Shown: piece by piece, positions 1 to 42,546 of the stretch
How positions within the stretch are numbered: position 1 is the first letter of the stretch
How the letters are laid out: every line of letters starts with the position of its first letter
Assembly: GCA_038205745.1 (NCBI GenBank)
Contig: JBBRBM010000001.1
Location: 35,516 to 99,515, forward strand
DNA from: Verrucomicrobiota bacterium
GTDB taxonomy: Bacteria > Verrucomicrobiota > Verrucomicrobiia > Limisphaerales > SIBH01
DNA length: 64,000 nt
Direction of reading: 5' to 3'
Position numbers and translations under genes: made by a program
The notes under the pieces: model-generated
Told to the model about the DNA's origin: nothing
The model's database searches: none
What the model saw: only the letters and a program-made list of their open reading frames with translations

Positions 1-1095
1 AGTGCGCAGCTCCCGCACGTTTCCCGGCCACGGATATTTCATCAGCGCGTCCATGGCGTCGGGTGCGATCCCGTCCACCTTTTTCGCGTTCTCCGCGGCG
101 AACTCTTTGGCAAAGCTCTGCGCGAGCAACGGCACATCGTCCATGCGTTCACGGAGCGGCGGCAGATGAATCTCCAGGACACGCAAACGAAAGAACAAAT
201 CCTCCCGGAACGTCCCTTCCTTCACGAGTTGCGCGAGGTTCTTGTTGGTGGCTGCGATCAATCGCACGTCAGCACTCAGAGTCTTGTTCGAGCCAACTCG
301 TTCAAATGTTCGCTCACCCAAAAACCGCAGCAGCTTCACCTGCGTGGTCGGATCGATCTCGCCAATTTCATCCAGGAACAGCGTTCCGCCCTGCGCTTGT
401 TCGAATCGTCCCACGCGCCGTTCGTGCGCACCGGTGAAGGCGCCCCGCTCGTGCCCGAAGAGTTCGCTCTCCAGCAGCGTCGGGGACAGCGCGGCGCAGT
501 GAATCGTCACCATGAGTGCGCTCTTGCGCGGACTAAGTTGATGAATTGCCTTGGCGATCAACTCCTTGCCCGTGCCGCTTTCGCCAGAGATCAAGACCGT
601 CGTGCGCGCAGGCGCAACGGCGCGCACGAGCTCGAACACTTCCTCCATCCCCCGCGTGTTGCCGATGATGTTCTCCACGCCGAACCGCGTATCGAGCCGT
701 TGTTTCAGCGTAACGTTTTCGGTCTCCAACTTCTGCTGGCGCATGGCGCGTTGGATGCGCATCTCCAGCTCGTCGATCTGCAGTCGTCCCTTGGCGATGT
801 AATCATCCGCGCCGCTTTTCATCGCTTCGACGGCGAGTTCCTCCGAGCCGTAGGCGGTCATGAGGATACAGATGGGCGCATGGGGCAACGCTTTGGCGCG
901 CTTGATGAGATTCATCCCGTCCTCGTTGGGCAGGCGGAAGTCGGTGAGGAGCACGTCGAACTTTTCCTCTTCGAGCAATACGAGCGCGCCCGCCGCGTCC
1001 TCGGCAGTGTAGACGTCGTAACGATCCTCCAGCGCCGCGCGTAAACCTTCGCGCGACGTTTTCTCGTCATCCACAATGAGCAACATGGGGTTCAT
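1..1095 (-). CDS. sigma-54-dependent Fis-family response regulator (NtrC-like); its C-terminus runs off the window start
   Basis: It is missing from the ORF track because it has no stop in the window. Reverse translation from the ATG at 1095 gives MNPMLLIVDDEKTSREGL (receiver), then VLISGESGTGKE (Walker A) and GHERGAFTGA (sigma54-contact loop). The + ORF 166..1044 is its antisense shadow. Confidence 0.9.
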   Translation of the reverse strand, partial: MNPMLLIVDDEKTSREGLRAALEDRYDVYTAEDAAGALVLLEEEKFDVLLTDFRLPNEDGMNLIKRAKALPHAPICILMTAYGSEELAVEAMKSGADDYIAKGRLQIDELEMRIQRAMRQQKLETENVTLKQRLDTRFGVENIIGNTRGMEEVFELVRAVAPARTTVLISGESGTGKELIAKAIHQLSPRKSALMVTIHCAALSPTLLESELFGHERGAFTGAHERRVGRFEQAQGGTLFLDEIGEIDPTTQVKLLRFLGERTFERVGSNKTLSADVRLIAATNKNLAQLVKEGTFREDLFFRLRVLEIHLPPLRERMDDVPLLAQSFAKEFAAENAKKVDGIAPDAMDALMKYPWPGNVRELRT

Positions 1096-1321: not shown

Positions 1322-3355
1322 TCAGTTGGATGACTGCGGCAAAAACAGCTTCACCACCCCGTGATGCGACACATCAGACGACGGAATCTCCAGCTTGCCG
1401 TGGTGGGTCTCCAGAATCTTGCGCGTCACCGTGAGCCCCAGCCCCAGCCCGACCGTGCGCGTGGTGAAGAATGGCGCGGGAACTTTCTGCGCCATCTCCG
1501 CCGTGAAGCCCTCTCCGTTATCATGCACTTCCACTTCCGCAAGACGACGGCCTTTGCCATTGAAACCTTGGTCGATCTTCACCTTCACCGAGATCTTCGC
1601 GTTCTTCGGATTGGCCTGGAACGCATTGAGAAAGATTTCGAGGAACGCATGCTTGAGCGCCCCACGATCCCCCGTGACCACCGGCGGCGCCGAGGCGGAA
1701 TCGAACTTGAGCAATGCCGACTTCACCTGCTGATGCGCCTGCGCTTCGCGGAAAGCTTCCTCCACCAACGGCCCCAGCGGGAAAGATTCCTCCCCCGCCA
1801 CCGTATCGCGCGCGAGGAAACGCATCTGGTTTACCAAACGGTTAATTCGCTTCACGCCATCCGCCAGCGCTTCCTCCAGCGAGCCGCGGAAATCGGGATC
1901 AAGGAATTGATCCGCGATCAACTGCTGGTGCGTCGAAATCGGAACGAGCGCATTGCCGATCTCATGCGCCAGCCGATCCGCCATGGACTTGATGAGCCGC
2001 AGATTGTTGGTCTCGACTTCGAGCGTATGGAGTTGCTCGTCCTGCGTGTGATCCTCCACCACCATCAGCGCCGAATCCGGCAGCGCGCCCGGCCGCGTTT
2101 GCAAGGGAACGATCGAGATTTGGTAAATCGAATGTTTCGTATCGGCGGGCTGAAAACGAAATGGCGCCAGTGCCGCGCCGGACTTCAACACCTGATAAAC
2201 CTTGCTCCCGAGCACGACCGGCAGATCGCTGAACTGCAGCTCGACCGAGCGCTTCGATCCCACGAGAAACTTCCGCGCCGTGTCATTGCAGTGAAGGATG
2301 TTCAGGTCCCGGCCGACCACGATGCAGCCGCTGTTAAGCTGGCGCAGGATGCCGGTGAGCATGTTCTGGTTCGCCACGAGCTGGTCGTGAAACCAGACGT
2401 TCCGGATCGCGAGTCCCATCTCTTCCAAAAGATGAAAGATGATCTCGAGCTCTTCGCGTGAAAGCGGCTCGCCGGTGATGCGCCCATCGAGGGCCATCAG
2501 GCCGACCAATGTCTGCCGATCAAGAATCGGGACGACCACCTGCGTGTTCAGCACCGCGAACTCGCGCGTGATTTCTGAATCGTTCTGCGCCTCGGCGCTG
2601 TCACGCCAGAGAATCCGTCCGTGACGGAAAATATGCGCGCCAATGCCGGTTTCCAGCGACATCTCCATCTGGTCCACCACGCTGTTGGACAGTCCGATCG
2701 CGTAGGCCGAGCGGAGAAAACGTCCGCCGCCCATCGACGGCGCGTTGCCGATCGCGAGTTCCGGCTGGCGCAGAAAAATCGCGGCGCGCCCGACGCCGGT
2801 AATCTCACGAAGCTGGAGGAGAAATTGTTTCAGCAACATCTCGGTGCTGAGCGAGTTCGCGAGCAGGCTCGAAAACTCGCGCCATTTTTGAAGTGAACGC
2901 AACGTCGCTTCGTTGGCGGCACGCGTCGCCACCTCGGGCATCGCAATGGGCGCCAGGCGCACGGGCAAATTGGACGTCGCCGGAGCGGGAGCGGCCTGAG
3001 CGGAGTGCGGCTGGTCGAGAACCGCTTCGAGCATGCGCGCCCGCACCGGCTTGCGCAGCACGTGTTTAACGCCGGCAAGGTATGCCTCTTCCTCGAGCGA
3101 CCACTTTGCTTCATCGCAGAACACGATGATCGGCGCATTCGGCACACGACGGCGAATGCGTTCGAAGACCCACATGCCGGCCGTGTCAACCACCGGAGCA
3201 TCAATGATGCACGCGTTGAGCAGCGCGTGTTCCAACAAAGGTTCTGCTTCAGTCACATCAATGCGATGGACCACCCGGAAGCGCTCTGGATCGAGCGCCG
3301 CACGGATCGAATCGGCCAGCTCAGGATGGTGAGCAAGGACCAAAATGGTTTTCAT
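1322..3355 (-). CDS. sensor histidine kinase: degenerate receiver, GAF, PAS, HisKA, HATPase
   Basis: 677-aa ORF. N-terminus MKTILVLAHHPELA is receiver-like. HisKA H-box is LAHEIGNALVPI. The ATPase has VHDNGEGF and GLGLGLTVTRKILETHHGKLEI. Confidence 0.9.
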   Translation of the reverse strand: MKTILVLAHHPELADSIRAALDPERFRVVHRIDVTEAEPLLEHALLNACIIDAPVVDTAGMWVFERIRRRVPNAPIIVFCDEAKWSLEEEAYLAGVKHVLRKPVRARMLEAVLDQPHSAQAAPAPATSNLPVRLAPIAMPEVATRAANEATLRSLQKWREFSSLLANSLSTEMLLKQFLLQLREITGVGRAAIFLRQPELAIGNAPSMGGGRFLRSAYAIGLSNSVVDQMEMSLETGIGAHIFRHGRILWRDSAEAQNDSEITREFAVLNTQVVVPILDRQTLVGLMALDGRITGEPLSREELEIIFHLLEEMGLAIRNVWFHDQLVANQNMLTGILRQLNSGCIVVGRDLNILHCNDTARKFLVGSKRSVELQFSDLPVVLGSKVYQVLKSGAALAPFRFQPADTKHSIYQISIVPLQTRPGALPDSALMVVEDHTQDEQLHTLEVETNNLRLIKSMADRLAHEIGNALVPISTHQQLIADQFLDPDFRGSLEEALADGVKRINRLVNQMRFLARDTVAGEESFPLGPLVEEAFREAQAHQQVKSALLKFDSASAPPVVTGDRGALKHAFLEIFLNAFQANPKNAKISVKVKIDQGFNGKGRRLAEVEVHDNGEGFTAEMAQKVPAPFFTTRTVGLGLGLTVTRKILETHHGKLEIPSSDVSHHGVVKLFLPQSSN

Positions 3356-3594
3356 GTCAGAGGTTTCAATGAGTCAGACTTCACGCACATCCGCTGGCTC
3401 GCGGAGAGTAAGGCGTGATTGAGGTTGGGTAGCAATCCATTTGCTTCAGCCACCAAAATTTCCTGTGCGTCGATCACCAGAAGTGCCACGGCGACAGTTG
3501 TAACGGGCCTTAAGCTGGTGGAACAATCCGCACGCGTACGAAGTGGCCAGTCGGGGAAAGGACGAAGAAAATCCCCGCGGATGGCGCACTTCAT
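3352..3594 (-). CDS. hypothetical 80-aa protein, overlap-coupled to both neighbouring genes
   Basis: Its ATG (3592-3594) overlaps the TGA of the upstream gene (3591-3593). Its TGA (3352-3354) overlaps the ATG of the downstream gene (3353-3355). The frame stays open across the whole 235-nt gap. I recognised no motif, and GC3 is only moderate. Confidence 0.35.
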   Translation of the reverse strand: MKCAIRGDFLRPFPDWPLRTRADCSTSLRPVTTVAVALLVIDAQEILVAEANGLLPNLNHALLSASQRMCVKSDSLKPLT

Positions 3595-4844
3595 CGCGCG
3601 GAGAGAAGCTTCTCCCAAAGCGCGTCCGTCTGACTGATCTTCTTGAACAGCTCGGTGCCCTGCGGAGAAACCGCGACGCGGTTCGGTGTGATGGGCAGCT
3701 CAATACTGAACTCGGTCCCCTGCCCCGGCGCGCTATGGGCCTCGAGCTTTCCGCCGTGGTAGTGAACGATGAAATAACACGCCATGAGGTTGATCCCATG
3801 CTCGGTCGGACTGTCGCTGCGCGCATTGAACGGATCGAAAATCGTGTCGAGAATTTCCTGAGAGAGTCCAGGGCCGTTATCTCGCACAGTAACAATAATG
3901 TGTTCAGGTTTGTCCAATGGGGTATGCGCCGAGATCGAGATCCGGCTTCCGGCCGGAAGGCTGACAATTTCATCTTTCAAGAGAAGCTCGAACATCCGCG
4001 TGAATTTCGCCTTGTCGACGGTCAACGTCGGGAGCAGATCGGGCAGCGCCAATTCCACGGTGATGTTCTTCGCCGCCAGCGCATCACGCATCCGCGCCAT
4101 GGTTTCATTCGCCACGTCGCTGAGTTGGACTTGATCGGTGAAGCCCAGTGAGGGCGTCTCGGCAATCACCCACAGTTCCTTCAACAAATTATCGATCTTC
4201 ACCACGTATTGATCCGCAGTTTGCTGATACTCGGTCCAGAACTCCGGCGCTTTCGATTTCTCCGGGTCGATGCCTTCTTCGCGAAGCTGCTGCGGCACCA
4301 GCTCGATGAAAGTTTTCACCGGCACGAGCGAGTTGCGAATGTGATGGCTCAACCCCGCAGCCATGAAGCCGAGGCTCACGACACGGTCCGAGATCATCAT
4401 GTTGTGCAGCACATCCATCTTTTCGCGCAGCAACTGATCGCGCTCGCGCTGCACGGCGAAGAGCTGGAGCGCGTGCTTGAGCGTGCTCTCCAGGAGCGGC
4501 GGATCCCACGGCTTCGTGACGAAATGGAAAATGGCTCCGGTGTTCACCGCGTCGATCATCGCCTGCATGTCCGAGTAGGCGGTGACGAGAATGCGCAGCA
4601 CGTTCGGGCGGAGCTGCCGCGCCTTGTCGAGCAGCCACACGCCATGTTCGCCCGGCATGCGCTGGTCCGTCATCAACACGCCGATATCATCCGCGTGTTG
4701 CTCGAACAGTTTCAAACCTTCCACGGCCGTCTTCGCGGTGAGGATTCTGAATTGCTCGTTGAAGGCGCGATCGAAGCTCTTGAGCGAACGCTCTTCGTCG
4801 TCGACGTAGAGAACGTAATAGCGGCGTAAACCTTGGGTGGACAT
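3591..4844 (-). CDS. receiver domain fused to a HisKA-HATPase kinase-like output (PhcR-like architecture)
   Basis: 417 aa. The receiver has YVLYVDDEERSL, LMTDQRMPG and FHFVTKPWDP. The H-box is GLSHHIRNSLVPVKTF. The ATPase has VRDNGPGLS and GQGTEFSIELP. Confidence 0.9.
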   Translation of the reverse strand: MSTQGLRRYYVLYVDDEERSLKSFDRAFNEQFRILTAKTAVEGLKLFEQHADDIGVLMTDQRMPGEHGVWLLDKARQLRPNVLRILVTAYSDMQAMIDAVNTGAIFHFVTKPWDPPLLESTLKHALQLFAVQRERDQLLREKMDVLHNMMISDRVVSLGFMAAGLSHHIRNSLVPVKTFIELVPQQLREEGIDPEKSKAPEFWTEYQQTADQYVVKIDNLLKELWVIAETPSLGFTDQVQLSDVANETMARMRDALAAKNITVELALPDLLPTLTVDKAKFTRMFELLLKDEIVSLPAGSRISISAHTPLDKPEHIIVTVRDNGPGLSQEILDTIFDPFNARSDSPTEHGINLMACYFIVHYHGGKLEAHSAPGQGTEFSIELPITPNRVAVSPQGTELFKKISQTDALWEKLLSAR

Positions 4845-4846
4845 GG

Positions 4847-6235
4847 TCAGGCGGCGATGGATTCGGCGGCGACCGCCGGCAACGAAACGGTGAACTCACA
4901 AAACTTCCCGCGCTCGCTGCGCACAGAAATCTTGCCGTGGCAATCCGACACGATCCGGTAGCAAATGCTCAGGCCCATGCCCATGCCTTTGCCGACGTCG
5001 CGTGTCGTGAAAAACGGATCAAAAATCTTCGCGAGGTTTTGCTCCTCAATGCCTTCGCCATTGTCGCGCACGGCGATGATCGCGCTGCCGTCCTCGATGC
5101 GTCCGGAGATCACGATCTTCGGCGGCTCATCCGATGCGGGCCGATCCTTCAATGCATCGAGCGCATTCTGGATGAGGTTCACGAACACTTGCATCAGCTT
5201 GTTGCGGTTCGCGCGGCACGCGACGTTCGACGGCACCTGTTGCTCGATCACGACTTTGTCCTTCCACTCATTGCTGAGGAATCGAAGCGAGGTGCTCACC
5301 ACTTCAGCGAGGGACACATCGTCGATCTGTGCTGCGTCGGGATGCGTGAATGAGCGCAGGTCCGAAACAATATTCTTCACGCGCTGCAAACCATCGTTGA
5401 TGTCCTGCAATACTTCGCTGAAGTCGGACGGCTTCTCCCGCGCCAGCCGCTCGCCCTGCTGGCGCAGCGTGTAGAGCGCGGTCGTGGCGAAGTTCAGCGG
5501 ATTGTTGATCTCGTGGATGATGCCGGCACTGAGGCGCCCGAGCGACACGATCTTCTCCGTCTGGATGAGTTGCAGCTCCGTTTCCTTCAACTGGCGCAAT
5601 GTTTCTTCAAGCACGCGATTCTGATGCGCAAGCGCCTCACGGTTTTTATCGAGCTGATAGCGCGATGCGAATTCACTGAAGCGCAGCCGGCTGTGAAAAT
5701 AAGTGCCTGTGACGATGACAATGCCCGGGGCGATGAGGAACGCGAGATTGTTGCTGAACCAACTGTGAAAATCGACTGGCGTGCGTAGCGTGCATGCAAT
5801 CAGGTAACTCAACAGCACGATGAGCACGCCTGCGACGCTCTGCCAAAAAGTCCAGTCCAGCACCACCGCCAGCACCATCAGAACAAGCGTTAGCCCAGCG
5901 TAGTACGGTGAGTTGGGAGGATCTTTCACCGTATAAATCATCCAGGAGATGCAAATGGTCGGCAGCGACAATAAGACCAGCCCTTGAAGACGGAAAAATT
6001 TTCGACTGAGACGAGTACCCAACAGCGGATAAAGCGCGGCCATCATCAGGGAGCACGCGATCCGTAGTTTCAGGAAAAACACCACGTGCTCCTCGTAAAC
6101 CAAGCGGTCCAGCACGGTGAACATTGGCACCAGCACGATGCCGATGATGCAACCCCAGCGGGTCTTGCTGATCGTCAGCGCGCGCTCGTGCTCCCGATGC
6201 TCCTCCGCAATTTCTCTGGAAGTAACTTCTCTCAT
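4847..6235 (-). CDS. polytopic-membrane sensor histidine kinase (PhcS-like position)
   Basis: I trimmed the start to the ATG at 6235, which overlaps the stop of the upstream gene (ATGA at 6232-6235). It has about 6 hydrophobic segments. The H-box is [13 protein letters not shown]. The ATPase has [11 protein letters not shown] and [17 protein letters not shown]. Confidence 0.88.
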
Positions 6236-7626
6236 GCCGGTCGGCGCGATTCCAGGAAGAGGTTCACCGCCGTTGGCTCGGCAATCACCGCATTCTCGGC
6301 GGCGGGATCGTCTGGCACGAAGCGCCACAAGCGGGCGCTGTCGCGATAGATCAAATGCCAGTCGAGCACGAACTCGATGAAATTCCGGAAGGGCTTCGCG
6401 TCGTGCATGTTCGCGACGCACACCAGCCCGCCGGGCTCGATCATGTTGTAGAAAACCTGCACGAGCGCCTTGCAGGTGGCGTCGGCGAGATAGTCGTAGA
6501 GGCCGGCGCAGTAAACGAAGTCGTACGTCTCCTTCGTCACCACAGCCGCCGCCGGACGTTTCACCGCGCTGCGCAACAAGGTGTGGACGGACATGTGCCG
6601 CGTCTCAAGCGTCGCCATAGGTGCGAACTGCCGGCGAGTTTCCTCAAACTGTTCGCGCGCATACTTCAACGTCTCCTCATTGAAGTCCACGAACGTGAAG
6701 TCCGCATGATTGCCCAGCGCGCTCTCGCGCAGAAAATATTGCACCTCGCGTCCGGGACCGCAGCCCACGTTCAGGATGCGCGCGCGCCGGCCCGAGCGCA
6801 CCACGCGCGCCACTTCGTTGATCAGCTTCTGCTTGAGATGCGCGATGCGCAGCCGCACCGACTCTGCGGGCCACTGGCTCACGAGCAGCGCGTGCATCGC
6901 CTTGGCAAACAGCGTGTCCCCCTCCGGCGCGTTGCGATGGATCATGTCCATCATCTCGTAATCTCCGGCGTAGCCGAGCGGTTTGTAGAACGTGCGGTAG
7001 CCAAACGGCGTGCAAAGGAAGTATGGGCCCCATTCCCGCCACGTGAAATTGTGGTGCGCCTCGCGCAGTTCAGGCTCGATACGATACGCGATCTCCTCGA
7101 ACCGTTCGTGCAGCGCATTGAATGAATTAATCACGCGCGGCGCGAGATCCTCGATGAAGCGTTGCTCCTCCTGATCCGCCGTGCCGTTGTTGTTCGCACG
7201 CAACGTGAGTTGCACGTAATCGAGCCAGCGCTGTACCTGGGAAAGCAGGATCGTCACATCAGTCACCACGATCTTGAACTCGGGAAGGATGCGATAGCCG
7301 GTCAGCCACCTTTTCTGAAATTCCGCAAATGACACCGCACCTTCCGAGAGCATGGCTGTGTTCACGCCACGTTCATCAAGCAGCGCCCGGCACGTAATGT
7401 GATTGCCGTGGTTCACCATGCTGGAGACCGTCGCCTTGCCTTCGTAAAGCGTCTGCTCGCGCAGCTTCAGGCTGAACTGGGGAAGCACTTCGGACATGCG
7501 CAGCGAATCATCCGGGGCGTAAAGGTCAAACACCGCTTCGAAACGGCCAAGCTTGACGAGGTGACCCTCGAACTCCTCGCCGCGGCTGGTCGCAAAACGA
7601 AGCGACGCTTCAATTTCTTCTTTCAT
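6232..7626 (-). CDS. large class I SAM-dependent methyltransferase with a non-catalytic N-terminal region of about 250 aa (PhcB-like)
   Basis: Motif I is ARILNVGCGPGREV. The post-I region reads DFVYCAGLYDYLADATCKALV...IEPGGLVCVANM. I chose the ATG at 7626 (MKEEIEASL). An alternative GTG lies at 7656. Confidence 0.85.
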   Translation of the reverse strand: MKEEIEASLRFATSRGEEFEGHLVKLGRFEAVFDLYAPDDSLRMSEVLPQFSLKLREQTLYEGKATVSSMVNHGNHITCRALLDERGVNTAMLSEGAVSFAEFQKRWLTGYRILPEFKIVVTDVTILLSQVQRWLDYVQLTLRANNNGTADQEEQRFIEDLAPRVINSFNALHERFEEIAYRIEPELREAHHNFTWREWGPYFLCTPFGYRTFYKPLGYAGDYEMMDMIHRNAPEGDTLFAKAMHALLVSQWPAESVRLRIAHLKQKLINEVARVVRSGRRARILNVGCGPGREVQYFLRESALGNHADFTFVDFNEETLKYAREQFEETRRQFAPMATLETRHMSVHTLLRSAVKRPAAAVVTKETYDFVYCAGLYDYLADATCKALVQVFYNMIEPGGLVCVANMHDAKPFRNFIEFVLDWHLIYRDSARLWRFVPDDPAAENAVIAEPTAVNLFLESRRPA

Positions 7627-7793
7627 CGGAAACCAGGTGAACTGCGTCGGGCCCACCGCAAGCAGTTTTACATTGTCCGGCCATATTCATCCGGGTAATA
7701 GCTTTATCGTCCGCTTAGCGTGCAAGTAAAGTCCTGAGGGTTCGGGTGCGGTGTGCCCACACTCCAGGACGGTGTGTACGTGACGGCGGATCG

Positions 7794-8852
7794 ATGACGA
7801 CATCAACCAACGCGACCGAAACGCGCACGAGTGAACTGGAGGAAAACTTCAGTGCCGCCCTGATGGATTGCGCGCCTGTGGGAGTCATCACCGTGGACGC
7901 CACACGCCACGTCATCGCGATCAACGCCAAGGCGGAACAAATCCTCAAACTGAGTGCGGCGGAAATCATCGGGCTCGATTTTTCACGGCTGCCAGAACCG
8001 CTCGTGGACCTGGTCGACGAAGCGTTGGTCACGGGCCATTCGTCCGAGCCACATCCCCTTGGCGCCACCCACATTTCGAGACTATCCGGGCTAGCCACAA
8101 TCGCGCGCGCTTCAGATGGCCTCCTGAGTTCCGTGCTGATCGAGTTCCAGGAACTCACCACCGCGCAGGCCATTTCCGCAAACCTCGAACACCTCGACCG
8201 CCTCGCCGGCCTTGGCGTCGTGACCGCGGGGGTGGCTCACGAAATCAAAAATGCCCTCGTCGCCGTGCGGACCTTCTTCGACCTCGCCGGCCTTGGCGAA
8301 ACTGACGTCGAGTTGCGCAATGTGGCCGCCGGAGAGATTCAGCGCATCGAGAAGACCGTGCGCCAGCTCCTGCGTGGCGCGAAACGCGAGCAGTTCCGGC
8401 TCGCGCCATTGAGCGTTCACGCGCTGGTGCAGGACGCCGTCAATCTCTTGCGGCACGAATTGCAGACGCGCGAGATTCAACTCACCACGTCTTTTCACGC
8501 ACCCGTCGACCGCGTGAACGGGGACGAGCGTCAGCTCCGGCACGCGCTCGTGAACGTGCTGCTCAATGCCGTCGAAGCCATCGGTTCATCCGGGCATCTC
8601 ACGATCACCAGCGAAGTGGTGGACGCCTGGGAGCGGCAACACCTGCGCGTCAGCATCAAGGACAGTGGACCGGGAATCTCGATCGAGACTCAGGGGAAAC
8701 TCTTCAATCCATTCTTCACCACGAAGTCCGACGGCACTGGCCTCGGCCTGCCGATCAGCCAGCGCATCTTCCAGGCGCACAACGGCACGATCACTGTGGA
8801 AAGCCAGCCCGGCGTGGGCGCGACGTTTCACATGTTCCTGCCGCTGCTGTAG
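7794..8852 (+). CDS. PAS-domain sensor histidine kinase (NtrB-like, soluble)
   Basis: H-box is AGVAHEIKNALVAVRTF. The ATPase has IKDSGPGISIE and FFTTKSDGTGLGLPISQ. I chose the ATG at 7794. The track starts at a GTG at 7746. Confidence 0.88.
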   Translation: MTTSTNATETRTSELEENFSAALMDCAPVGVITVDATRHVIAINAKAEQILKLSAAEIIGLDFSRLPEPLVDLVDEALVTGHSSEPHPLGATHISRLSGLATIARASDGLLSSVLIEFQELTTAQAISANLEHLDRLAGLGVVTAGVAHEIKNALVAVRTFFDLAGLGETDVELRNVAAGEIQRIEKTVRQLLRGAKREQFRLAPLSVHALVQDAVNLLRHELQTREIQLTTSFHAPVDRVNGDERQLRHALVNVLLNAVEAIGSSGHLTITSEVVDAWERQHLRVSIKDSGPGISIETQGKLFNPFFTTKSDGTGLGLPISQRIFQAHNGTITVESQPGVGATFHMFLPLL

Positions 8853-8957: not shown

Positions 8958-9788
8958 TCACGCCACCGGCACTTCAACAAACTTCCGCTCGATCTTCCCG
9001 TCCTTCGCCGTGCAGACGAAGTAACCCTTCTCCGTCGTCTTGTCGTGGTTGCCCTTGCTGATCGAGCAACACTTGTTCGTGACGAAGACGGTCCCGCGTA
9101 TCTTACCTTCCGTAAACGCGTGCCAGTGCCCGTTGAACACCTGCGCCAGGTTGAACTCCGTGAACGGCGCCAGCAACTCATCTGCATTCAATGGGCGATG
9201 CGGTGCCGTGGGCCCGAGTGGAAAATGCGTGAATAGAATCGTCGGCTGCTTTGCGTTCAGCTTCGGCGCGTTCTCCTTCACCCACGCCATCGTGTGCGGT
9301 TGGATGATCGTCTTGGTGGCCTTCTTGCCCTCGGTAGTATCGAGCGCGATCACGCGCCAGCCGCGATGCTCGAAGCTGTAATTCAAACCTTTCGGCAACA
9401 CCCCGTCGTAGCCGGAACGATCCGTCTGCGTGATGTAATCGTGGTTCCCCGGCACCGCGTGCCAGGGCATCCGGAAGGAATTCAAAACCTCCTTCATCCC
9501 GCCAAGTTCCTTCTTCGATCCGTTCTCCGAAAGATCGCCGACGAACAAACACAGCTCCGGCTTTTCCGGCAGCGCCAACACGCTCGCCTTCACTCGCGCG
9601 TAAAACTCCGGGCACTTCGGCGTGAAGAAATGCGCATCATTGATCACCACAAAACTGAATCCGCTTTCCCCTAGCCCGCCGTCCGCGAACCGCGCGCAAC
9701 CCGGCGCCAATCCCGCCGCCAGCAGCGCCCCCGCACTCAATTTCAGAAAGTCACGGCGCGACGTCTTGGGAGTGGTGTGAATATTCAT
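8958..9788 (-). CDS. Tat-exported calcineurin-like metallophosphoesterase
   Basis: The twin-arginine leader is TSRRDFLKLSAGALLAAGLA. Phosphoesterase motifs are FVVINDAHF, FVGDLSENG, VPGNHD and NGHWH. Confidence 0.85.
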   Translation of the reverse strand: MNIHTTPKTSRRDFLKLSAGALLAAGLAPGCARFADGGLGESGFSFVVINDAHFFTPKCPEFYARVKASVLALPEKPELCLFVGDLSENGSKKELGGMKEVLNSFRMPWHAVPGNHDYITQTDRSGYDGVLPKGLNYSFEHRGWRVIALDTTEGKKATKTIIQPHTMAWVKENAPKLNAKQPTILFTHFPLGPTAPHRPLNADELLAPFTEFNLAQVFNGHWHAFTEGKIRGTVFVTNKCCSISKGNHDKTTEKGYFVCTAKDGKIERKFVEVPVA

Positions 9789-9928
9789 GGCAAAGTCAGA
9801 CGTTGCGCCCGCGCCGCTGCTTCAAGTGGTTTAGCCACCGAGTCACAGCGGCAATGAGAACAATTCCACCTCAATCCCTCCGCCGTGAATTGCTTTTACC
9901 CTCTTCGACGCGAATGCTTTCCGCCGGC

Positions 9929-10504
9929 ATGAATTGGCTCGCGCACCTCGTCCTCTCCGAACCCGACCCTGAGTTCCGTCTCGGCAATCTCCTGCCAGAC
10001 TTTCTCGCGCCGCGCGAACTCCATGCCCTGCCCGCCTCCTTCCAACGCGGCATTGCCTGCCATCGCGTCATCGATGCCTTCACCGATTCCCATCCTGTCG
10101 TGCGACGCAGCATTCGCCGATTGCGCCGCGAGCACCAACGCTACGGCGGCATCATCATCGACCTCGCCTACGACCATTTCCTCGCGTGCCGATGGAACGA
10201 CTTCGCGGCGGGATCGCTCCAACAATTCGCGCGCGAATTCTACGCGCAGATCGATTTCCACCGCACCGTGCTCCCCGCGGAAGTCCTCATGGCCCTCGAC
10301 CGGATGCGCGCGGAAGATTGGCTCTGCTCCTACCGCGAAGTGGCCGGGCTCAGCCAGACCTTGCGTCGCGTGGGCCATCGATTCCGCCGTCCCGTGGACC
10401 TCTCCCAAGCCATGCGCGAGATCGAACTTCACCGCGCCGATTTCGACGAAGACTTCCTTGAATTCTTTCCCGAACTGCGAAGCCGCGTTGCAGAAACACC
10501 GTGA
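9929..10504 (+). CDS. acpH: acyl carrier protein phosphodiesterase (AcpH family)
   Basis: From the internal ATG at 9929 the protein opens MNWLAHLVLSEPDPEFRLGNLLPDF. This is the characteristic AcpH N-terminus, and about 191 aa is the typical length. Confidence 0.75.
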   Translation: MNWLAHLVLSEPDPEFRLGNLLPDFLAPRELHALPASFQRGIACHRVIDAFTDSHPVVRRSIRRLRREHQRYGGIIIDLAYDHFLACRWNDFAAGSLQQFAREFYAQIDFHRTVLPAEVLMALDRMRAEDWLCSYREVAGLSQTLRRVGHRFRRPVDLSQAMREIELHRADFDEDFLEFFPELRSRVAETP

Positions 10505-10529
10505 GCACCTGCATGACGTAGTCATGCCA

Positions 10530-10686
10530 CGAAGGTAGCCGTGGACTTCAGTCCACGGTTCACGACGACGGCGGAGATGCGTCGCGTAGCGACGCCTGAT
10601 GGTGCGGTGGAGTTTTCAACCGCCGCTACGCGACGAGAACGCGCGGACGACGCGAGTCCGTGGGCTGAAGCCCACGGCTACCTTCG
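10530..10686. repeat. composite array of short GC-rich hairpins bounded by a 29-nt inverted repeat
   Basis: The outer arms are cgaaggtagccgtggacttcagtccacgg (10530-10558) and ccgtgggctgaagcccacggctaccttcg (10658-10686). Internal stems include ccgtggac/gtccacgg, gcgtcgc/gcgacgc and ccgtgggc/gcccacgg. A 7-bp stem, gcatgac-gta-gtcatgc, at 10511-10527 directly follows the acpH stop. Confidence 0.75.
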
Positions 10687-10753
10687 TCGGAGTCGCTACG
10701 CGACCGGGGGAAGCCGTCTCGCATTGCTTTTGTCAAAGCGGGCGGGAAGCGGA

Positions 10754-10827
10754 GTCTCGCGAATGCCGCGAAGGAAACAAAGGTTCCAACATCCACTCCT
10801 TCGCCTCCTTCGTGTTCTTCGCGAGAC
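10754..10827. repeat. palindromic intergenic element, family A, copy 2
   Basis: gtctcgcgaatgccgcgaagg ... ccttcgtgttcttcgcgagac. It is flanked by an imperfect direct repeat, caaagcgg(g/tg)cggga, at about 10734-10750 and about 10853-10868. Confidence 0.8.
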
Positions 10828-10842
10828 ACTCCTCCGGCAAGT

Positions 10843-11352
10843 TTGTTTTTGCCAAAGCGGTGCGGGAGTGATTTCGTCGGTCCCCTGAACCCGGTTCCGC
10901 CAATTCCCAAAGATCTCGCACAGTGGATAGAGTTTCTACGTTACTTCGACGCGCTGCTGCTCACGATTCCGCTAGGTGAGGAGCCGGAGATTCTTTCGTT
11001 TCCGGGTGAACCATGGAAGGAACTTGCGGAGTGGCGTGCAGTCGCGTCGGAAGCTGACGGGCGTGCAGTCGCTGCCATAGAGCATCTTCTCGATGCCGGC
11101 GCTTGGCCTAAATCAAAGCGGCAAGACACTTTTTGGTTTCGGGTAGAGCACAGGATTAAGAGTGCTCATGACGTGTGTACGATTCTGGCGACGCGAATCA
11201 GGTTTTCCGGCGAGGAAACCGTGGTGGCAGCAATTCCTCAAGCAACGATACCGGCGAAGCTAACGGTTGAATGGCTTCTCCTCAGTCTTTGGAACCGCGC
11301 GCCATGGTTACGAGATCGCTTCGAACCAAATCCATGGTCTCAGTATCCGTAA
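10843..11352 (+). CDS. hypothetical Trp-rich protein (orphan, start uncertain)
   Basis: The 169-codon ORF has no in-frame ATG (TTG at 10843). It is visibly lower in GC than its neighbours and uses ATA, CTA, AGG and TTA codons. I recognised no motif. Confidence 0.35.
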   Translation: MFLPKRCGSDFVGPLNPVPPIPKDLAQWIEFLRYFDALLLTIPLGEEPEILSFPGEPWKELAEWRAVASEADGRAVAAIEHLLDAGAWPKSKRQDTFWFRVEHRIKSAHDVCTILATRIRFSGEETVVAAIPQATIPAKLTVEWLLLSLWNRAPWLRDRFEPNPWSQYP

Positions 11353-11451
11353 TAATTGACCTTAACCCACAAGACGTTCCATGCACCGCACGTCGCCGCT
11401 TCGCGTTTGAAATAGTTTCCATCCTGCTCCCGCGTGTTTAACGTCGCACGC

Positions 11452-12879
11452 ATGAACCAGCGCGAGATGCATTCACCGCAGAGTCCCACAACACACAGAT
11501 TGAAATGCCTCTCGGTGTTCTCCGTGGCTCTGTGGTTCATCACTTCGCCCCTCTTCGCCGCCATCGGCACGTTCAACATCCGCGACTTCGGCGCGGTGGG
11601 TGATGGCGCCACTTCCGACTCCAGGGCGATCAACGCCGCGGTGGAGGCTTGCAGCAAGGCGGGCGGCGGGCAGGTGCTCTTCCCGCCGGGACGTTATCTC
11701 TCCGGCACGGTGCATCTGCGCAGTCACGTGGCGCTCTTCCTCGAAGCGGGCGCGCGGCTCGTCGGCACCACGAACCTCGCGGATTATCAGTTCCCCGCGC
11801 AGTTGCCGAACATGCCGGAGGCCAAGTGGGGCAAGTGGCATCGTGCGCTGTTGCTCGGCGAGAGCGTGACGAATGTGCAGATCAGCGGGCCGGGAATCAT
11901 CGACGGCAACAAGGTGTTCGATCCCACGGGCGAGGAGCGCAAGCGCGGCCCGCACACGGTGCTGTGGGTGAACTCGCGCGGGTTCGTCATCCGCGACGTG
12001 ACGATCGTGGACTCGGCGAATTATGCGATCCTCTTCCAGGCCAGCGATGACGTGGACATCCGCCGCGTGAAGATCGTGGGCGGCTGGGACGGCGTGCATT
12101 TCCGCGGCGCGCCCGACAAGTGGTGCCACAACGTGAACATCATCGATTGCGAGTTTTACACGGGCGACGACTCGATCGCGGGGCGGTATTGGGACAACTG
12201 CGTGATTGCGAATTGTGTGATCAATTCGTCGTGCAACGGCATCCGCGTCATCGGCCCCATCACGCGCACGATTGTGAACAATTGTTTGTTCTACGGCCCC
12301 GGCCAGCAGCCGCATCGCACCGGCGGGCGCACGAATATGTTGAGCGGCATCATCATTCAACCCGGCGGCTGGGACGCGACGCGAGGGTCGGTGGATGACG
12401 TGTTGCTCGCGAACAACACGATGCACAACGTGACGTCGCCGGTGACGATTTGGAACAAGCCGGGCAACACGTACGGCCGCGTGACGATCGATGGCTTGCG
12501 CGCCACGCAAGTCTATCGCGCCGCGATGTCGGTGGAGAGCTACGCCGACGAACCGATCACGAACGTGGTGTTCCGAAACGTAAGCGTGGAATACACCGGC
12601 GGCGGCACGGCGAACATGGCGACGAACCGCGTGCGCGGCCCCGGCGTGGACGCGCGGGCGTTGCCGAGTTGGGGATTCTTCGCGCGCAACGTGGAGAACA
12701 TCCGCTTCGAAAACGTGCGCTTCAGCTTGAGCAAGGACGATGCGCGGCCCGTGGTGATCGCCGAGAACGTGAAGCAGTTCACGGTGGATGAGTTTCATTT
12801 CCCACGCGTCGATGGAGTGAATAACGCCATCGTGACGTCGAACGCGACGGTGCGAACGATCGAGTCCGGTTGGAAGTAG
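11452..12879 (+). CDS. secreted glycoside hydrolase family 28-like (polygalacturonase / right-handed beta-helix)
   Basis: It has a signal peptide (LSVFSVALWFITSPLFAA) followed by FNIRDFGAVGDGATSDSRAINAAVEACSKAGGGQVLFPPGRY. Repeated beta-helix turns include NCVINSSCNGIRV. Confidence 0.85.
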   Translation: MNQREMHSPQSPTTHRLKCLSVFSVALWFITSPLFAAIGTFNIRDFGAVGDGATSDSRAINAAVEACSKAGGGQVLFPPGRYLSGTVHLRSHVALFLEAGARLVGTTNLADYQFPAQLPNMPEAKWGKWHRALLLGESVTNVQISGPGIIDGNKVFDPTGEERKRGPHTVLWVNSRGFVIRDVTIVDSANYAILFQASDDVDIRRVKIVGGWDGVHFRGAPDKWCHNVNIIDCEFYTGDDSIAGRYWDNCVIANCVINSSCNGIRVIGPITRTIVNNCLFYGPGQQPHRTGGRTNMLSGIIIQPGGWDATRGSVDDVLLANNTMHNVTSPVTIWNKPGNTYGRVTIDGLRATQVYRAAMSVESYADEPITNVVFRNVSVEYTGGGTANMATNRVRGPGVDARALPSWGFFARNVENIRFENVRFSLSKDDARPVVIAENVKQFTVDEFHFPRVDGVNNAIVTSNATVRTIESGWK

Positions 12880-12983
12880 TGGGGCAGCCGTCCCGGCTGC
12901 CAACCGTCCTCTGGCCGTCCTCGCTGGAGAAACCACCAGGCCGGAGGCCCAGTGGACGCTGGCAGCCGGGACGGCTGCCCCAC
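12879..12983. repeat. perfect 24-bp inverted repeat with a 57-nt spacer
   Basis: gtggggcagccgtcccggctgcca at 12879-12902 is the exact reverse complement of 12960-12983. The spacer contains a further stem, cctctggcc/ggccggagg. The element starts at the last base of the GH28 stop codon. Confidence 0.9.
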
Positions 12984-12997
12984 TATTATCGCGTGCG

Positions 12998-13534
12998 ATG
13001 TTGAAAGTGTTGGATCCCTGTTTGCGCGCTTGTCGCAGAGTCGGTGTCGCACCCACGCGCTGGCTGCTCACGGTGAACATCGCGCGGCAGTCGATGAGTT
13101 TGTTTGAGCGTGACGGCGACTGTTATGAGCTTCGCAAGAGCTATCGCGTTTCCACTTCGCGCTTCGGCATCGGCTCGCAGGCGGACTCCAACTGCACACC
13201 GCTCGGCCTTCATCGCGTGGCAAAAAAAATCGGCGGCGGCTGGCCGGTCGGCGCCGTGTTCAAGTCGCGTGAACTGAAAGGCTATACGTGGAAAGGCTTC
13301 CCCCGAGCGTCGATCACACATCGCATTTTCTGGCTTGAGGGAATGGAGCCGGGGCGCAATCGCGGCGGCGATGTGGACACGTTTGCTCGCTACGTTTACA
13401 TCCACGGCACGGGCGATGAACCGACGATCGGGAAGCCGGCGTCGCATGGGTGCATTCATCTCGCGGCGAAAGATCTGTTACCGCTCTACGATTTGCTTCT
13501 GGAGAAAACGCTGGTGTGGATCAGCGAGCGATAG
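12998..13534 (+). CDS. L,D-transpeptidase (YkuD-fold) family protein
   Basis: The catalytic motif is [22 protein letters not shown]. No obvious signal peptide is visible. Confidence 0.8.
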
Positions 13535-15920: not shown

Positions 15921-15941
15921 TCGAGTGCCGCGCCCGCCGCA

Positions 15942-17249: not shown

Positions 17250-17257
17250 TCTACACC

Positions 17258-41640: not shown

Positions 41641-42546
41641 CTACTTGTTCTTGGGCAACGGAACGTAGCCGGTCTCAGCCACGATTTTTTGTCCTGCATC
41701 GGAGATGATCCAATCGAGGTACTTCTTGATGTGTGGTGCGGGTTCGCCACTTGTGTACATGTACATAGGGCGTGCGATCGGGTAACTCTTGTCGAGCGTC
41801 GTGGCGATGGTCGGCTCAACTCCCTTTTCACCTTTTTTCTTCGCAACCTTGAGATGCTTGACCGCCGACGTGGCGTAGCCCATGCCCGAATAACCAATTG
41901 CATTCGGGGTTTTCGCGATGAGATCCACCACGTCCTTCGAGCCGTTCATGTCCACGGTGCCATTGCGCATCTCGTTCTTCTTCCCCACGATCGCCTCGCG
42001 GAAATAATGATACGTGCCGGAGTTGTTCTGGCGGCTGACGAGAATGATTTCATCGCCTTTCGCGCCGGGGATATTGCTCACACCCAGTTCGGACCACTTC
42101 GAGAGCTTGCCGTCTTTCATGTAGAGCTGCTGGAGTTCCTCCATCGAGATTTCCGTCATCGGGTTGTCCTTATGCACAAACACCGAGAGCGCGTCATAGC
42201 CGACCATATATTCCTTGGGCTCGGTGCCGGGATGCTTGGCTTTGAAGTCGGCAATTTCCTTCTCCTCAAAAATGCGTGAGCAGTTCGCGATCTGGCAGGC
42301 TCCATTGATGAGCGCGGCCACGCCCTGCCCGGAACCGCCGCCGTTCACTTCCACGGAAACGCTCGGGTCAATCTTGGAGTAGGTGTCCGCCCAGGCAATG
42401 GCGAGGTTCACCATGGTGTCTGAGCCGACGTTCGCGACCGCTGTCTTCTTGCCGCCGCTTGCGCCGTCGCCTCCTTTGTTGCCGCAGCCCGTGAGCGCGA
42501 CCACAACAGCGAGTGTGAGTGTTGAGAAGATGAGTTTTCTTTTCAT
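41641..42546 (-). CDS. pstS: phosphate-binding lipoprotein PstS
   Basis: The lipobox is LAVVVALTGCGN. PBP-fold motifs are VGSDTMVNLAIAW, NGGGSGQG and SRQNNSGTY. Its ATG overlaps the phoU-fusion stop (ATGA at 42543-42546). Confidence 0.88.
   Translation of the reverse strand: MKRKLIFSTLTLAVVVALTGCGNKGGDGASGGKKTAVANVGSDTMVNLAIAWADTYSKIDPSVSVEVNGGGSGQGVAALINGACQIANCSRIFEEKEIADFKAKHPGTEPKEYMVGYDALSVFVHKDNPMTEISMEELQQLYMKDGKLSKWSELGVSNIPGAKGDEIILVSRQNNSGTYHYFREAIVGKKNEMRNGTVDMNGSKDVVDLIAKTPNAIGYSGMGYATSAVKHLKVAKKKGEKGVEPTIATTLDKSYPIARPMYMYTSGEPAPHIKKYLDWIISDAGQKIVAETGYVPLPKNK

Follow-up and report, generated by a model that had tools for sequence, protein, structure and literature searches.

A putative Phc-type cell-to-cell signalling module in Verrucomicrobiota

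Autoinducer circuits include LuxM/LuxN-LuxU-LuxO of Vibrio and the Lqs/Cqs circuits of Legionella and Vibrio (CqsA-CqsS and LqsA-LqsS-LqsR). In the Phc system of Ralstonia, the product of PhcB varies within the genus and may be C14 or C16. PhcB, described as a small-molecule ester synthase (PMC10653808), produces 3-OH MAME or 3-OH PAME, and the signal is sensed by PhcS, PhcR and PhcQ (PMC10653808; PMC13320629). Clusters resembling phcBSRQ occur beyond the plant pathogens, in Paraburkholderia, Janthinobacterium, Pseudoduganella, Telluria, Methylotenera and Gallionellaceae MAGs, and one such locus resides on a conjugative plasmid of P. graminis. The PhcB homologues of these other Burkholderiales are 62-92% identical to one another and their loci all keep PhcQ, while in a group of Paraburkholderia PhcR is cut down to a receiver-only protein of ~134 aa. 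No paper on Phc outside the Burkholderiales was found in the literature.

The locus presented here lies in a 64-kb window, the whole stretch of DNA that was analysed, and on balance its trio of genes is probably a verrucomicrobial version of the Phc signalling module. As in Ralstonia, a PhcB-type three-domain methyltransferase (464 aa in both the window and Ralstonia sp. R-29) is followed by a PhcS-type polytopic kinase (462 versus 447 aa) and by a protein combining a receiver of the PhcR/PhcQ clade with a kinase-like part, in the same gene order and with tight coupling. The verrucomicrobial cassette differs by its host phylum, with identities of 33-36%, and by a single receiver protein that replaces the PhcR and PhcQ pair. 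In the ATPase domain of this protein the N-box Asn and G2 box, both kept by PhcR, are missing, and an extra conserved C-terminal tail follows. The conserved additional partners differ as well: one is a divergent PAS kinase, and part of the family has a REC-GAF-PAS kinase with an atypical receiver. Compared with the phcBSRQ loci of the other Burkholderiales, the cassette represents a far more distant branch. The preliminary description of this DNA had proposed that phcQ and phcA were replaced; indeed, the window has no separate PhcQ gene, and a scan of 29 ORFs found none of LysR type (PhcA-like).

Table 1. Positions of the trio and of its neighbours in the window
Feature	Position	Strand	Evidence and remarks
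NtrC/AtoC-type sigma-54-dependent response regulator	1..1095	-	Pfam, NCBIfam
REC-GAF-PAS_4-HisKA-HATPase_c kinase, 677 aa	1322..3355	-	Pfam
PhcR/PhcQ-family receiver + DHp + degenerate ATPase protein	3591..4844	-	Pfam, hhalign, receiver clade
PhcS-family sensor histidine kinase	4847..6235	-	Pfam, full-length alignment
PhcB-family SAM-dependent methyltransferase	6232..7626	-	Pfam, pairwise and profile comparison; putative signal synthase
Divergent intergenic region between methyltransferase and PAS kinase, 119 nt	7627..7745	.	Sequence read
PAS-HisKA-HATPase_c histidine kinase, 368 aa, soluble, divergent	7746..8852	+	Pfam

The methyltransferase/kinase junction reads ccggcATGAgag, the methyltransferase TGA overlapping the kinase ATG (ATGA, 6232-6235) as originally observed, and 2 nt separate the kinase stop from the receiver-kinase start (...gccTGAccATGtcc), which indicates that the three genes form one operon. 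Junctions of 0-4 nt had been claimed more widely and hold for these first three genes only; 235 nt (3356-3590) lie between the trio and the REC-GAF-PAS kinase, and 226 nt (1096-1321) between this kinase and the NtrC-type activator. On the other side of the trio, the divergent region presumably contains promoters, which we can only infer because a scan of its 119 nt found no sigma-54 or sigma-70 consensus.

The methyltransferase measures 464 aa from its ATG, or 474 aa from an alternative GTG at 7656, and contains both motifs, ILNVGCGPG and DFVYCAGLYDYL. Pfam matches for class I SAM methyltransferases cover residues 263-408, with ~260 non-catalytic residues ahead; ORF and domains agree with the protein of ~465 aa, catalytic in its C-terminal half, that was first described. 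The protein, modelled with AF2 at a pLDDT of 86, comprises a beta-barrel with a PilZ-like fold (~7-83) and a helical domain (~100-277), followed by a Rossmann methyltransferase domain of class I (282-461). Over its whole length, both non-catalytic N-terminal domains included, it can be aligned with the PhcB homologues of Ralstonia, Cupriavidus necator and Paraburkholderia, at 32.6% identity over 466 aa for Ralstonia sp. R-29 (E 6e-78), and the two families match by hhalign over 451 columns (E 6.4e-86). Taken alone, the barrel (1-95) and the helical region (96-260) each match 81/81 Burkholderiales PhcB homologues. Among the 215 positions conserved at >=95% in Burkholderiales PhcB, 105 (49%) are kept, against 33% overall identity. 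By alignment, the methyltransferase is thus a full-length PhcB homologue; a likeness confined to the generic Rossmann fold is rejected, since the N-terminal domains match PhcB on their own. Homologues of this protein had already been labelled phcB, '3-hydroxypalmitic acid methyl ester biosynthesis protein', by JGI's pipeline. The substrate is not deducible from sequence, because identity to PhcB is ~33% and neither a PhcB structure nor its substrate-binding residues are known.

The adjacent kinase (462 aa) begins with ~200 hydrophobic, polytopic residues, in which a crude hydropathy scan places several membrane segments, followed by HisKA and HATPase_c (Pfam); MASE8 is the precomputed annotation of this membrane domain on the orthologues. 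The kinase likewise aligns over its full length with PhcS homologues of Ralstonia, Cupriavidus necator and Paraburkholderia, and is 35.8% identical over 458 aa to one of the genus Ralstonia (E 3e-79). The membrane domain alone retains 33% identity over 190 aa (E 6e-17); its residues 1-210 match the PhcS homologue in 79/81 Burkholderiales loci, and 24 of the 42 invariant positions of the PhcS membrane domain (57%) are kept. A resemblance limited to the kinase core is thereby rejected, and the protein can be classed as a full-length PhcS homologue. When the PhcB, PhcS, PhcR and PhcQ homologues of one Ralstonia species were searched against the 64-kb window, the best matches were exactly the trio.

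The parallel is looser for the third gene. Its product (417 aa) is, as initially reported, a receiver fused to a kinase module (Response_reg and HATPase_c in Pfam). The receiver is intact (D15/D16, D60, T88, K111), bears the subfamily motifs DQRMPG and KPW, and groups with PhcR and PhcQ receivers in a single clade, separate from other receivers in the window. It resembles PhcQ (44%) and PhcR (37%) to a similar degree, and its best NCBIfam match, below cut-off, is the NosR family (receiver of HD-GYP-type c-di-GMP phosphodiesterases; E 2e-36). By hhalign, the protein matches the PhcR family over its full length (E 7.5e-48, 355 columns) and the PhcQ family over receiver and linker only (E 1.4e-44), while its kinase half matches the kinase cores of PhcS better than that of PhcR; the KO-based JGI label for the family is 'probable response regulator PhcQ'. 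The H-box retains its His (SHHIRN). In the N-box, Asp stands in place of Asn; the G2 box has degenerated (EHGINLM), and the protein closes with a conserved tail (...LWEKLL). Motif counts in 119 homologues show that the N-box Asn and G2 box are absent in essentially all of them, and a clean PhcR orthologue is rejected on this ground. Domain and profile evidence assigns the protein a PhcR architecture, a receiver of the PhcR/PhcQ clade and a kinase core that is not specifically PhcR-like. The proposal of a phcB-phcS-phcR-like trio therefore stands for the methyltransferase and for the kinase over its full length, and only in part for the third gene, where the receiver is about as close to PhcQ and the ATPase is degenerate.

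The trio is syntenic, in the same order, in all nine other verrucomicrobial contigs compared (L082-L089 and the P0003 contig; L084 ends inside the kinase gene), the lowest methyltransferase identity among them being 48%, which bears out its expected co-occurrence in related genomes. As the order PhcB-PhcS-PhcR-PhcQ is likewise kept in 75/81 Burkholderiales loci, the arrangement is not due to chance. Directly upstream of the trio, L088 and L089 carry a FadL-type (Toluene_X) outer-membrane channel and an alpha/beta-hydrolase, and L085 a remnant of the channel gene; in L082 and L086 fatty-acid desaturase genes adjoin it. This gene context points to fatty-acid or hydrophobic chemistry.

The regulators around the trio are less constant. 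The divergent PAS kinase is a conserved neighbour in the closer verrucomicrobial clade, with orthologues of 50-53% identity at the corresponding divergent site in L082, L083 and L084, a site occupied by kinases of 352-362 aa in L086 and L087. The REC-GAF-PAS kinase has an orthologue 3' of the trio in L085 (54% identity, 661 aa) and equivalents of 680-704 aa in L088, L089 and the P0003 contig; none was found beside the trio in L082, L083, L086 and L087, and we regard it as a facultative fourth member of the module. Its receiver is atypical by alignment, HH replacing the acidic DD pair while D52 and K104 are kept, and lack of the acidic pair makes a phosphorelay through this kinase doubtful. The NtrC-type activator, whose C-terminus extends beyond the window start, combines REC, Sigma54_activat and an AAA lid; the AtoC and NtrC models score best, below every NCBIfam cut-off, LuxO included. 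No NtrC-type gene adjoins the module in the relatives examined, nor was any DNA-binding output found to be conserved with it there. Being seen only in this window, the activator is not an established output but a possible lineage-specific one. The wiring first suggested for the trio thus recurs in only some relatives for the kinase and is confined to this window for the activator.

Under the Phc reading, the methyltransferase would use SAM to methyl-esterify a fatty-acid-derived carboxylate into a hydrophobic diffusible methyl ester, the substrate being, by analogy with PhcB, a 3-hydroxy fatty acid taken from the pool of acyl-ACP or lipid A precursors. This signal would build up with cell density. 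Within the membrane, the adjacent kinase would detect it through its polytopic (MASE8-type) domain and would then alter the phosphorylation of Asp60 in the receiver-kinase. The latter keeps its phospho-acceptor His next to a degenerate ATP-binding domain and is therefore likelier to relay or remove phosphate, or to serve as a scaffold, than to act as an autonomous kinase. Unlike in Ralstonia, the signal might speculatively leave via the divergent PAS kinase and/or the REC-GAF-PAS kinase towards the NtrC-type activator. Many uncultured Verrucomicrobiota probably use Phc signalling as well, wired differently downstream; the 3-OH fatty-acid methyl ester chemistry we infer from homology and gene context. 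The Lux and Lqs/Cqs circuits share the logic of a lipid-derived autoinducer synthase gene adjoining a polytopic kinase that senses within the membrane, and the Vibrio relay ends on NtrC-type LuxO, which recalls the activator of the window, itself not conserved with the module. Their synthases are unrelated in sequence, being acyl-HSL or PLP-dependent enzymes rather than SAM methyltransferases. With the DSF system (RpfF-RpfC-RpfG) the module would share a fatty-acid-derived diffusible signal, but it has no enoyl-CoA hydratase-type synthase, HD-GYP output or hybrid RpfC-type kinase.

The same synthase-receptor logic could serve another chemistry, with an unsaturated, branched or modified acyl compound or a non-lipid carboxylate as signal. 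In its favour, identity to PhcB is only 33% and some half of the positions invariant in Burkholderiales have changed, desaturase genes stand by the trio in two relatives, and the PhcB-type family is a wide continuum (the N-terminal region occurs in 861 clusters at 50% identity) that gives scope for substrate diversification. We hold it to be rather unlikely, as the three domains show no variation across both phyla, nor do motifs beyond the SAM site (KPLGYAGDY, for example), conservation extends to the membrane-embedded sensor domain, and the FadL-type channels of clade B (L088 and L089) fit long-chain hydrophobic ligands. Still less probable is a private sensor of envelope or lipid metabolism, in which a cell-bound lipid or intermediate would be the target of the methyltransferase and the kinase would monitor that pool or the membrane state. 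The wholly intramembrane sensor domain, a PilZ-like domain that might take intracellular input and the lipid-related neighbours (AcpH in the window, desaturases in relatives) would suit such a role; however, the only characterised members of the gene pair, in Ralstonia and Cupriavidus, form a diffusible or volatile autoinducer system, and translational coupling of a synthase to its sensor is the arrangement classically found for autoinducers.

That the methyltransferase acts on a protein, for instance methylating the kinase or the receiver protein in a CheR-like adaptation, seems very improbable. Its gene is tightly coupled to two-component genes and it does match the Pfam CheR SAM-binding domain, weakly and short of the threshold (E 4e-4; 20 bits, cut-off 27), but this match covers the generic Rossmann region, the enzyme's structural neighbours are small-molecule methyltransferases, as is its homologue PhcB in the literature, and the kinase lacks MCP-like methylation helices. 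That a generic class I methyltransferase came by chance to lie next to ordinary two-component genes could be imagined in so kinase-rich a genome (at least seven kinases in 64 kb). Its probability is negligible given the overlap of the methyltransferase and kinase genes, the synteny across two phyla and the specific match of the non-catalytic domains and of the membrane domain to PhcB and PhcS; full-length alignments, profile matches, domain-alone matches and reciprocal best matches together led to its rejection.

No rRNA, tRNA or Rfam match was obtained within the 64-kb window, and the PVC-type label first given to this genome has its basis in the nearest named homologues, which belong to MAGs of Verrucomicrobiota, Verrucomicrobiia and Limisphaerales. 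The AcpH gene, a lipid-related neighbour, is located at 9803-10504.

Five co-directional minus-strand genes, here named a to e, occupy the first 7.7 kb of the window, and their extents and domains are listed in the table together with other features of the stretch. The ORF and Pfam analysis bore out the genes and domains named in the preliminary description, and both methyltransferase motifs that it cited, ILNVGCGPG and DFVYCAGLYDYL, are present in gene a. The same description had the co-directional genes joined by 0-4 nt junctions. This is correct for a/b, where the junction reads ccggcATGAgag and the stop of gene a therefore overlaps the start of gene b (ATGA), and for b/c (TGAccATG, a 2-nt gap), but not for c/d and d/e, where the gaps are 235 and 226 nt, so that clear translational coupling into one unit is confined to a, b and c (hereafter the trio). 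The intergenic regions of the cassette showed no sigma-54 or sigma-70 consensus. A window-wide scan for the sigma-54 pattern TGGCAC-N5-TTGC with at most one mismatch gave a single match at 34098, far from the cassette and below chance expectation, a TGGCAC near 3486, within the gap 3356-3590, comes without the -12 GC, and the sigma-70 and terminator scans gave background level only.

Features of the cassette and of the rest of the window
Feature	Position	Strand	Length	Domains and remarks
Gene a, methyltransferase	6232-7626	-	464 aa from ATG (474 aa from GTG at 7656)	class I SAM methyltransferase at ~263-408; preceding ~260 residues without Pfam match
Gene b, membrane kinase	4847-6235	-	462 aa	hydrophobic polytopic N-terminal ~200 residues, then HisKA and HATPase_c (Pfam)
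Gene c, receiver-kinase	3591-4844	-	417 aa	Response_reg and HATPase_c (Pfam)
Gene d, REC-GAF-PAS kinase	1322-3355	-	677 aa	REC-GAF-PAS-HisKA-HATPase_c (Pfam)
Gene e, NtrC-type activator	1-1095	-		REC and sigma-54 AAA+ (Pfam); cut by window edge
Divergent PAS kinase	7746-8852	+		soluble; PAS-HisKA-HATPase_c; divergent from gene a, 119 nt away
Metallophosphoesterase	8958-9788	-		calcineurin-like; twin-arginine-like signal (SRRDFLK); adjoins divergent PAS kinase
AcpH	9803-10504	+		acyl-carrier-protein phosphodiesterase (PF04336, E 1e-61); two genes from methyltransferase
Second signalling cluster	13521-19699	-	799, 460 and 813 aa	GAF histidine kinase; double-receiver protein; hybrid kinase (HisKA, HATPase, two receivers, Hpt)
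Giant protein	21565-29178	+	2537 aa	six lamin-tail domains, CotH kinase-like, PA14, cadherin/Rib-like repeats
PAS kinase	36095-37339			with Pst-type operon
Pst-type phosphate transporter operon	~38.9-42.5 kb			PBP, permease, ABC ATPase
PhoU fusion	42543-43655	-		PhoU (two repeats) fused to low-molecular-weight phosphotyrosine phosphatase/ArsC-like domain; ends Pst-type operon

Judged by its alignments, gene a is PhcB-like over its full length, beyond the Rossmann fold. When 5.8 billion proteins were searched with it, scoring of 8,000 candidates gave 3,251 matches; the top 120 of the 3,251 share 47-83% identity with it across their full length, and where an organism is named it is almost always a metagenome-assembled genome (MAG) of Verrucomicrobiota, Verrucomicrobiia or Limisphaerales. 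Many homologues bear the JGI name 'extracellular factor (EF) 3-hydroxypalmitic acid methyl ester biosynthesis protein', the designation used for phcB. By tblastn against plasmids, a full-length homologue (33% over 463 aa, E 3e-79) was found on a Paraburkholderia graminis plasmid, within a methyltransferase-kinase-response regulator-response regulator cluster. With an alignment headed by this protein as query, 80 Burkholderiales loci were listed from the GTDB species genomes, out of at least 595 matching places. The 80 are those closest to the Paraburkholderia query; Cupriavidus necator is among them, as are eight species or MAGs of Ralstonia. Among the matches listed, the order PhcB-PhcS-PhcR-PhcQ is found in 75 of 81 loci.

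The PhcB comparison uses orthologues from non-solanacearum Ralstonia and C. necator as proxies, not R. solanacearum PhcB itself, and gene a shares 32.6% identity with the homologue of Ralstonia sp. R-29 across 466 aa (E 6e-78). Compared as families by hhalign, the two align over 451 columns with an E of 6.4e-86. The PhcB likeness claimed at the outset extends to the N-terminal region in these profile and BLAST comparisons, residues 1-95 (E about 1e-11) and 96-260 (E about 1e-20) each matching all 81 PhcB homologues when taken alone. Of the 215 positions with 95% conservation or more among 80 Burkholderiales homologues, gene a keeps 105 (22/56 in the barrel, 34/84 in the helical and 49/75 in the Rossmann domain), among them the invariant KPLGYAGDY motif, which lies outside the SAM site. 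NCBIfam has no PhcB, PhcS or PhcR model and returned generic methyltransferase and kinase-core matches only, all below cut-off; the PDB sequence search with gene a found no PhcB-like structure, the distant match being confined to the Rossmann region of phosphoethanolamine methyltransferases. Searched against 1.84 billion representatives, the non-catalytic N-terminal 255 residues matched 861 clusters (50% identity) at E<=1e-3, 294 at 1e-10 and 83 at 1e-30. The 861 clusters are a continuum linking the Burkholderiales and verrucomicrobial branches, and this region defines a distinct family.

The AF2 model of gene a (pLDDT 86, pTM 0.80) comprises a six-stranded barrel (residues 7-83), a helical domain (100-277) and a Rossmann domain (282-461). 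With the full model, Foldseek returned generic class I small-molecule methyltransferases only, headed by the uncharacterised 3ocj. The barrel modelled alone (pLDDT 83) matched PilZ-type structures first, namely MrkH, PP4397, YcgR, VCA0042, BcsA and Alg44, at TM 0.6-0.72 and a borderline E of ~1e-3. The N-terminal domain of PhcB-family methyltransferases, in gene a and in the homologues of loci L002-L081, is thus predicted to be a PilZ-like beta-barrel, which might act as a regulatory or substrate-carrier-binding domain; the papers examined make no mention of such a domain. Pfam finds nothing in this region, PilZ included, the RxxxR c-di-GMP motif is absent ahead of strand 1, which begins after only six residues, and the combination of fold, RxxxR and (D/N)xSxxG motifs that marks PilZ c-di-GMP receptors is not found in the barrel. 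As both RxxxR and a Pfam PilZ match are lacking, we do not claim c-di-GMP binding.

Directly downstream of the methyltransferase, gene b is PhcS-like, in agreement with the preliminary description. Its full-length alignment with a Ralstonia-genus PhcS homologue shows 35.8% identity across 458 aa (E 3e-79), and in the reverse search of the window, which has at least seven kinases, that homologue finds gene b as by far the best match, at 241 bits against 93 for the next. Taken alone, its membrane domain (residues 1-210) picks out a single ORF, always the PhcS homologue, in each of 79 among the 81 loci; the match to Ralstonia has 33% identity across 190 aa (E 6e-17). Conserved positions of the PhcS membrane domain are kept in 24 of 42 cases, including the polar or charged D43, R58, Q132, R185 and N206. 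The precomputed Pfam annotation of verrucomicrobial gene b orthologues reads MASE8-HisKA-HATPase_c; with the Pfam copy used here, MASE8 was reported neither in gene b nor in the Ralstonia-genus PhcS homologue, even at E<=1.

The third gene had been described as phcR-like, and this holds only in part: its architecture and full-length profile match speak for PhcR, but a relationship to PhcQ has to be weighed. Against the PhcR profile gene c aligns end to end (hhalign E 7.5e-48, 355 columns), against that of PhcQ over receiver and linker only (E 1.4e-44, 173 columns). Its receiver, in which D15/D16, D60, T88 and K111 are all present, groups in one clade with those of PhcR and PhcQ and separately from the remaining window receivers, and is roughly equidistant from both (44% identity to PhcQ, 37% to PhcR, with 42% between PhcR and PhcQ). 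The kinase half matches PhcS cores more closely than that of PhcR, and the JGI name for the family is 'probable response regulator PhcQ'. The PhcQ homologue itself matches only the gene c receiver in the window, with no separate PhcQ gene, and none of the verrucomicrobial relatives examined has a PhcQ-type gene beside the trio.

The kinase half of gene c departs from canonical HisKA/HATPase_c modules in its N and G2 boxes. The H-box histidine (SHHxRN; SHHIRN in gene c itself) is kept in 118 of 119 homologues and the G1 box (DNGPG) is present in gene c; the N-box carries Asp instead of Asn in 106 of the 119, none of which has a canonical N-box, and the G2 box is EHGIxLM in 119/119 and GxGxG in none. 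The C-terminal tail (...LWEKL) is conserved in 110/119. PhcR has canonical N and G2 boxes in the same alignment. Because of these mixed PhcR and PhcQ signals and degenerate boxes, we assign gene c to the PhcR/PhcQ family, as a receiver fused to a His-containing and probably non-catalytic kinase-like module. In a simple scenario, one ancestral receiver-kinase gene would have been duplicated into PhcR and PhcQ in Burkholderiales. On the Burkholderiales side, a Paraburkholderia group (L001-L012 and L079) has lost the kinase half and kept PhcQ, the PhcR position being held by a receiver-only protein of ~134 aa (at 10745-11149 in L001).

Co-occurrence of the trio in relatives was also confirmed, since it was found in all nine other verrucomicrobial contigs examined, one of which (L084, 5 kb) ends within the kinase gene. 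Six of them (the P0003 contig, L082, L083, L084, L086 and L087; clade A) have a methyltransferase of ~460 aa that is 52-79% identical; those with upstream sequence also have the divergent PAS kinase, 50-53% identical in L082, L083 and L084. Clade B (L085, L088 and L089) has a methyltransferase of ~500 aa with an N-terminal extension and ~48-49% identity. Among relatives, conservation is lower for the methyltransferase (56-58%) than for the kinase (65-72%) or the receiver protein (67-68%). A reading of the module as a horizontal-transfer island was set aside because GC content is flat across the window (0.57-0.62) and the chromosomal context of the module differs among relatives. In L085 the kinase and receiver-kinase are fragmented across frames (10523-13170), as pseudogenes or through indel errors of a long-read assembly. 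L087 is the contig of P0021, a protein labelled 'Candidatus Limnocylindria bacterium' (Chloroflexota) at NCBI; the contig is gene-for-gene syntenic with L082 (chorismate synthase, YajC, SecDF, ABC exporter, PAS kinase, trio) and nearly all other named homologues are verrucomicrobial, so it is probably mis-binned.

Several neighbours are lipid-related, which is circumstantially consistent with a hydrophobic, fatty-acid-derived ligand. The canonical Phc signal is (R)-methyl 3-hydroxymyristate or 3-hydroxypalmitate, and for a signal of that kind here the channel, hydrolase and desaturase genes of relatives are hints from context. Directly upstream of the methyltransferase and in the same direction, L088 (6465-8815) and L089 (6551-8819) carry a FadL-type (Toluene_X) outer-membrane channel and an alpha/beta-hydrolase, which are candidate factors for moving the signal through the outer membrane and for releasing its precursor or turning the signal over; L085 retains a remnant of the channel (8508-8804). 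A fatty-acid desaturase gene lies between kinase and receiver-kinase on the opposite strand in L086 (11783-12907), and desaturase genes lie directly downstream of the trio in L082 (13059-14217). The AcpH gene of the window may be tied to acyl-ACP-derived chemistry or be coincidental, and it does not accompany the module in L083. The arrangement of metallophosphoesterase and PAS kinase recurs in L083 and L084.

In the known system, PhcB forms 3-OH MAME or 3-OH PAME, and PhcS senses it with PhcR and PhcQ and controls PhcA (PMC10653808; PMC13320629). By analogy, the gene a enzyme would methyl-esterify a fatty-acid-type carboxylate, and the product would diffuse and be sensed in the membrane by the adjacent gene b kinase. 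This kinase would set the phosphorylation of D60 in the third protein, which could relay, drain or scaffold phosphate signalling through its His-containing domain. We lean towards a cassette that works like Phc at the level of synthase and sensor, making a diffusible methyl-ester signal, with a different wiring downstream. Canonical Phc (phcBSRQ/phcA) includes PhcQ and a PhcA-type gene, whereas the cassette of the window lacks PhcQ, and a Pfam scan of 29 of the window's ORFs brought up no LysR-type (PhcA-like) domain. The cassette differs further by its divergent third component and extra conserved partners. In Ralstonia too, phcA is unlinked to the phc operon.

The preliminary description had wired the trio to the REC-GAF-PAS kinase and the NtrC-type activator, of which only the former recurs beside the module, in some of the relatives examined. 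The fourth gene is kept in the P0003 contig (the closest relative with a long contig, 79%) and downstream in all three clade B contigs (54% over 661 aa in L085), and is absent from L082, L083, L086 and L087. Among the contigs examined, the present window alone has the NtrC-type gene together with the module. The receiver of the fourth gene is atypical, HH replacing the acidic DD pair while D52 and K104 are kept.

Verrucomicrobiota are abundant, mostly uncultured bacteria of soil and freshwater. To our knowledge, no quorum sensing of Phc type has been described in them; the full-text search found no paper on Phc-type modules outside Burkholderiales, and only incidental co-mentions of phcB together with Verrucomicrobia, although JGI data already machine-label these families phcB and PhcQ. 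The literature searched treats Phc signalling as particular to Cupriavidus and to the Ralstonia solanacearum complex, whose bacterial-wilt virulence has it as master switch. This picture is widened by a synthase-sensor pair that is conserved over its full length and syntenic in many verrucomicrobial metagenome contigs, and by a PhcB-specific N-terminal region that spans about 860 clusters (50% identity), with a different downstream wiring in Verrucomicrobiota. More tentatively, and with somewhat less than even confidence, we propose that Verrucomicrobiota widely carry an ancient Phc-type module that would both make and sense a volatile fatty-acid methyl ester, and whose relay would differ from the Ralstonia one in having a His-containing pseudo-kinase and a partner PAS kinase and lacking PhcA.

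Were the function confirmed, fatty-acid methyl esters would be a broad class of bacterial signal instead of a niche one, and Verrucomicrobiota would gain a first candidate autoinducer system. Cross-talk with a major crop pathogen of the soil, or interference with its signals, would also become a possibility. Given chemical overlap of the signals with 3-OH PAME or 3-OH MAME, carriers could eavesdrop on or disturb Ralstonia and Cupriavidus signalling in soil and rhizosphere. The predicted PilZ-like barrel and the degenerate kinase domain of the third protein would bear on the regulation of the pathway and may be of interest for Ralstonia too.

Elsewhere, the window holds the second signalling cluster, the phosphate transport genes and the giant protein entered in the table, and no tRNA, rRNA or Rfam family was matched in its 64 kb. 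Long antisense ORFs on the plus strand (e.g. 1361-2461 and 166-1044) overlap real genes, as is usual at ~59% GC.
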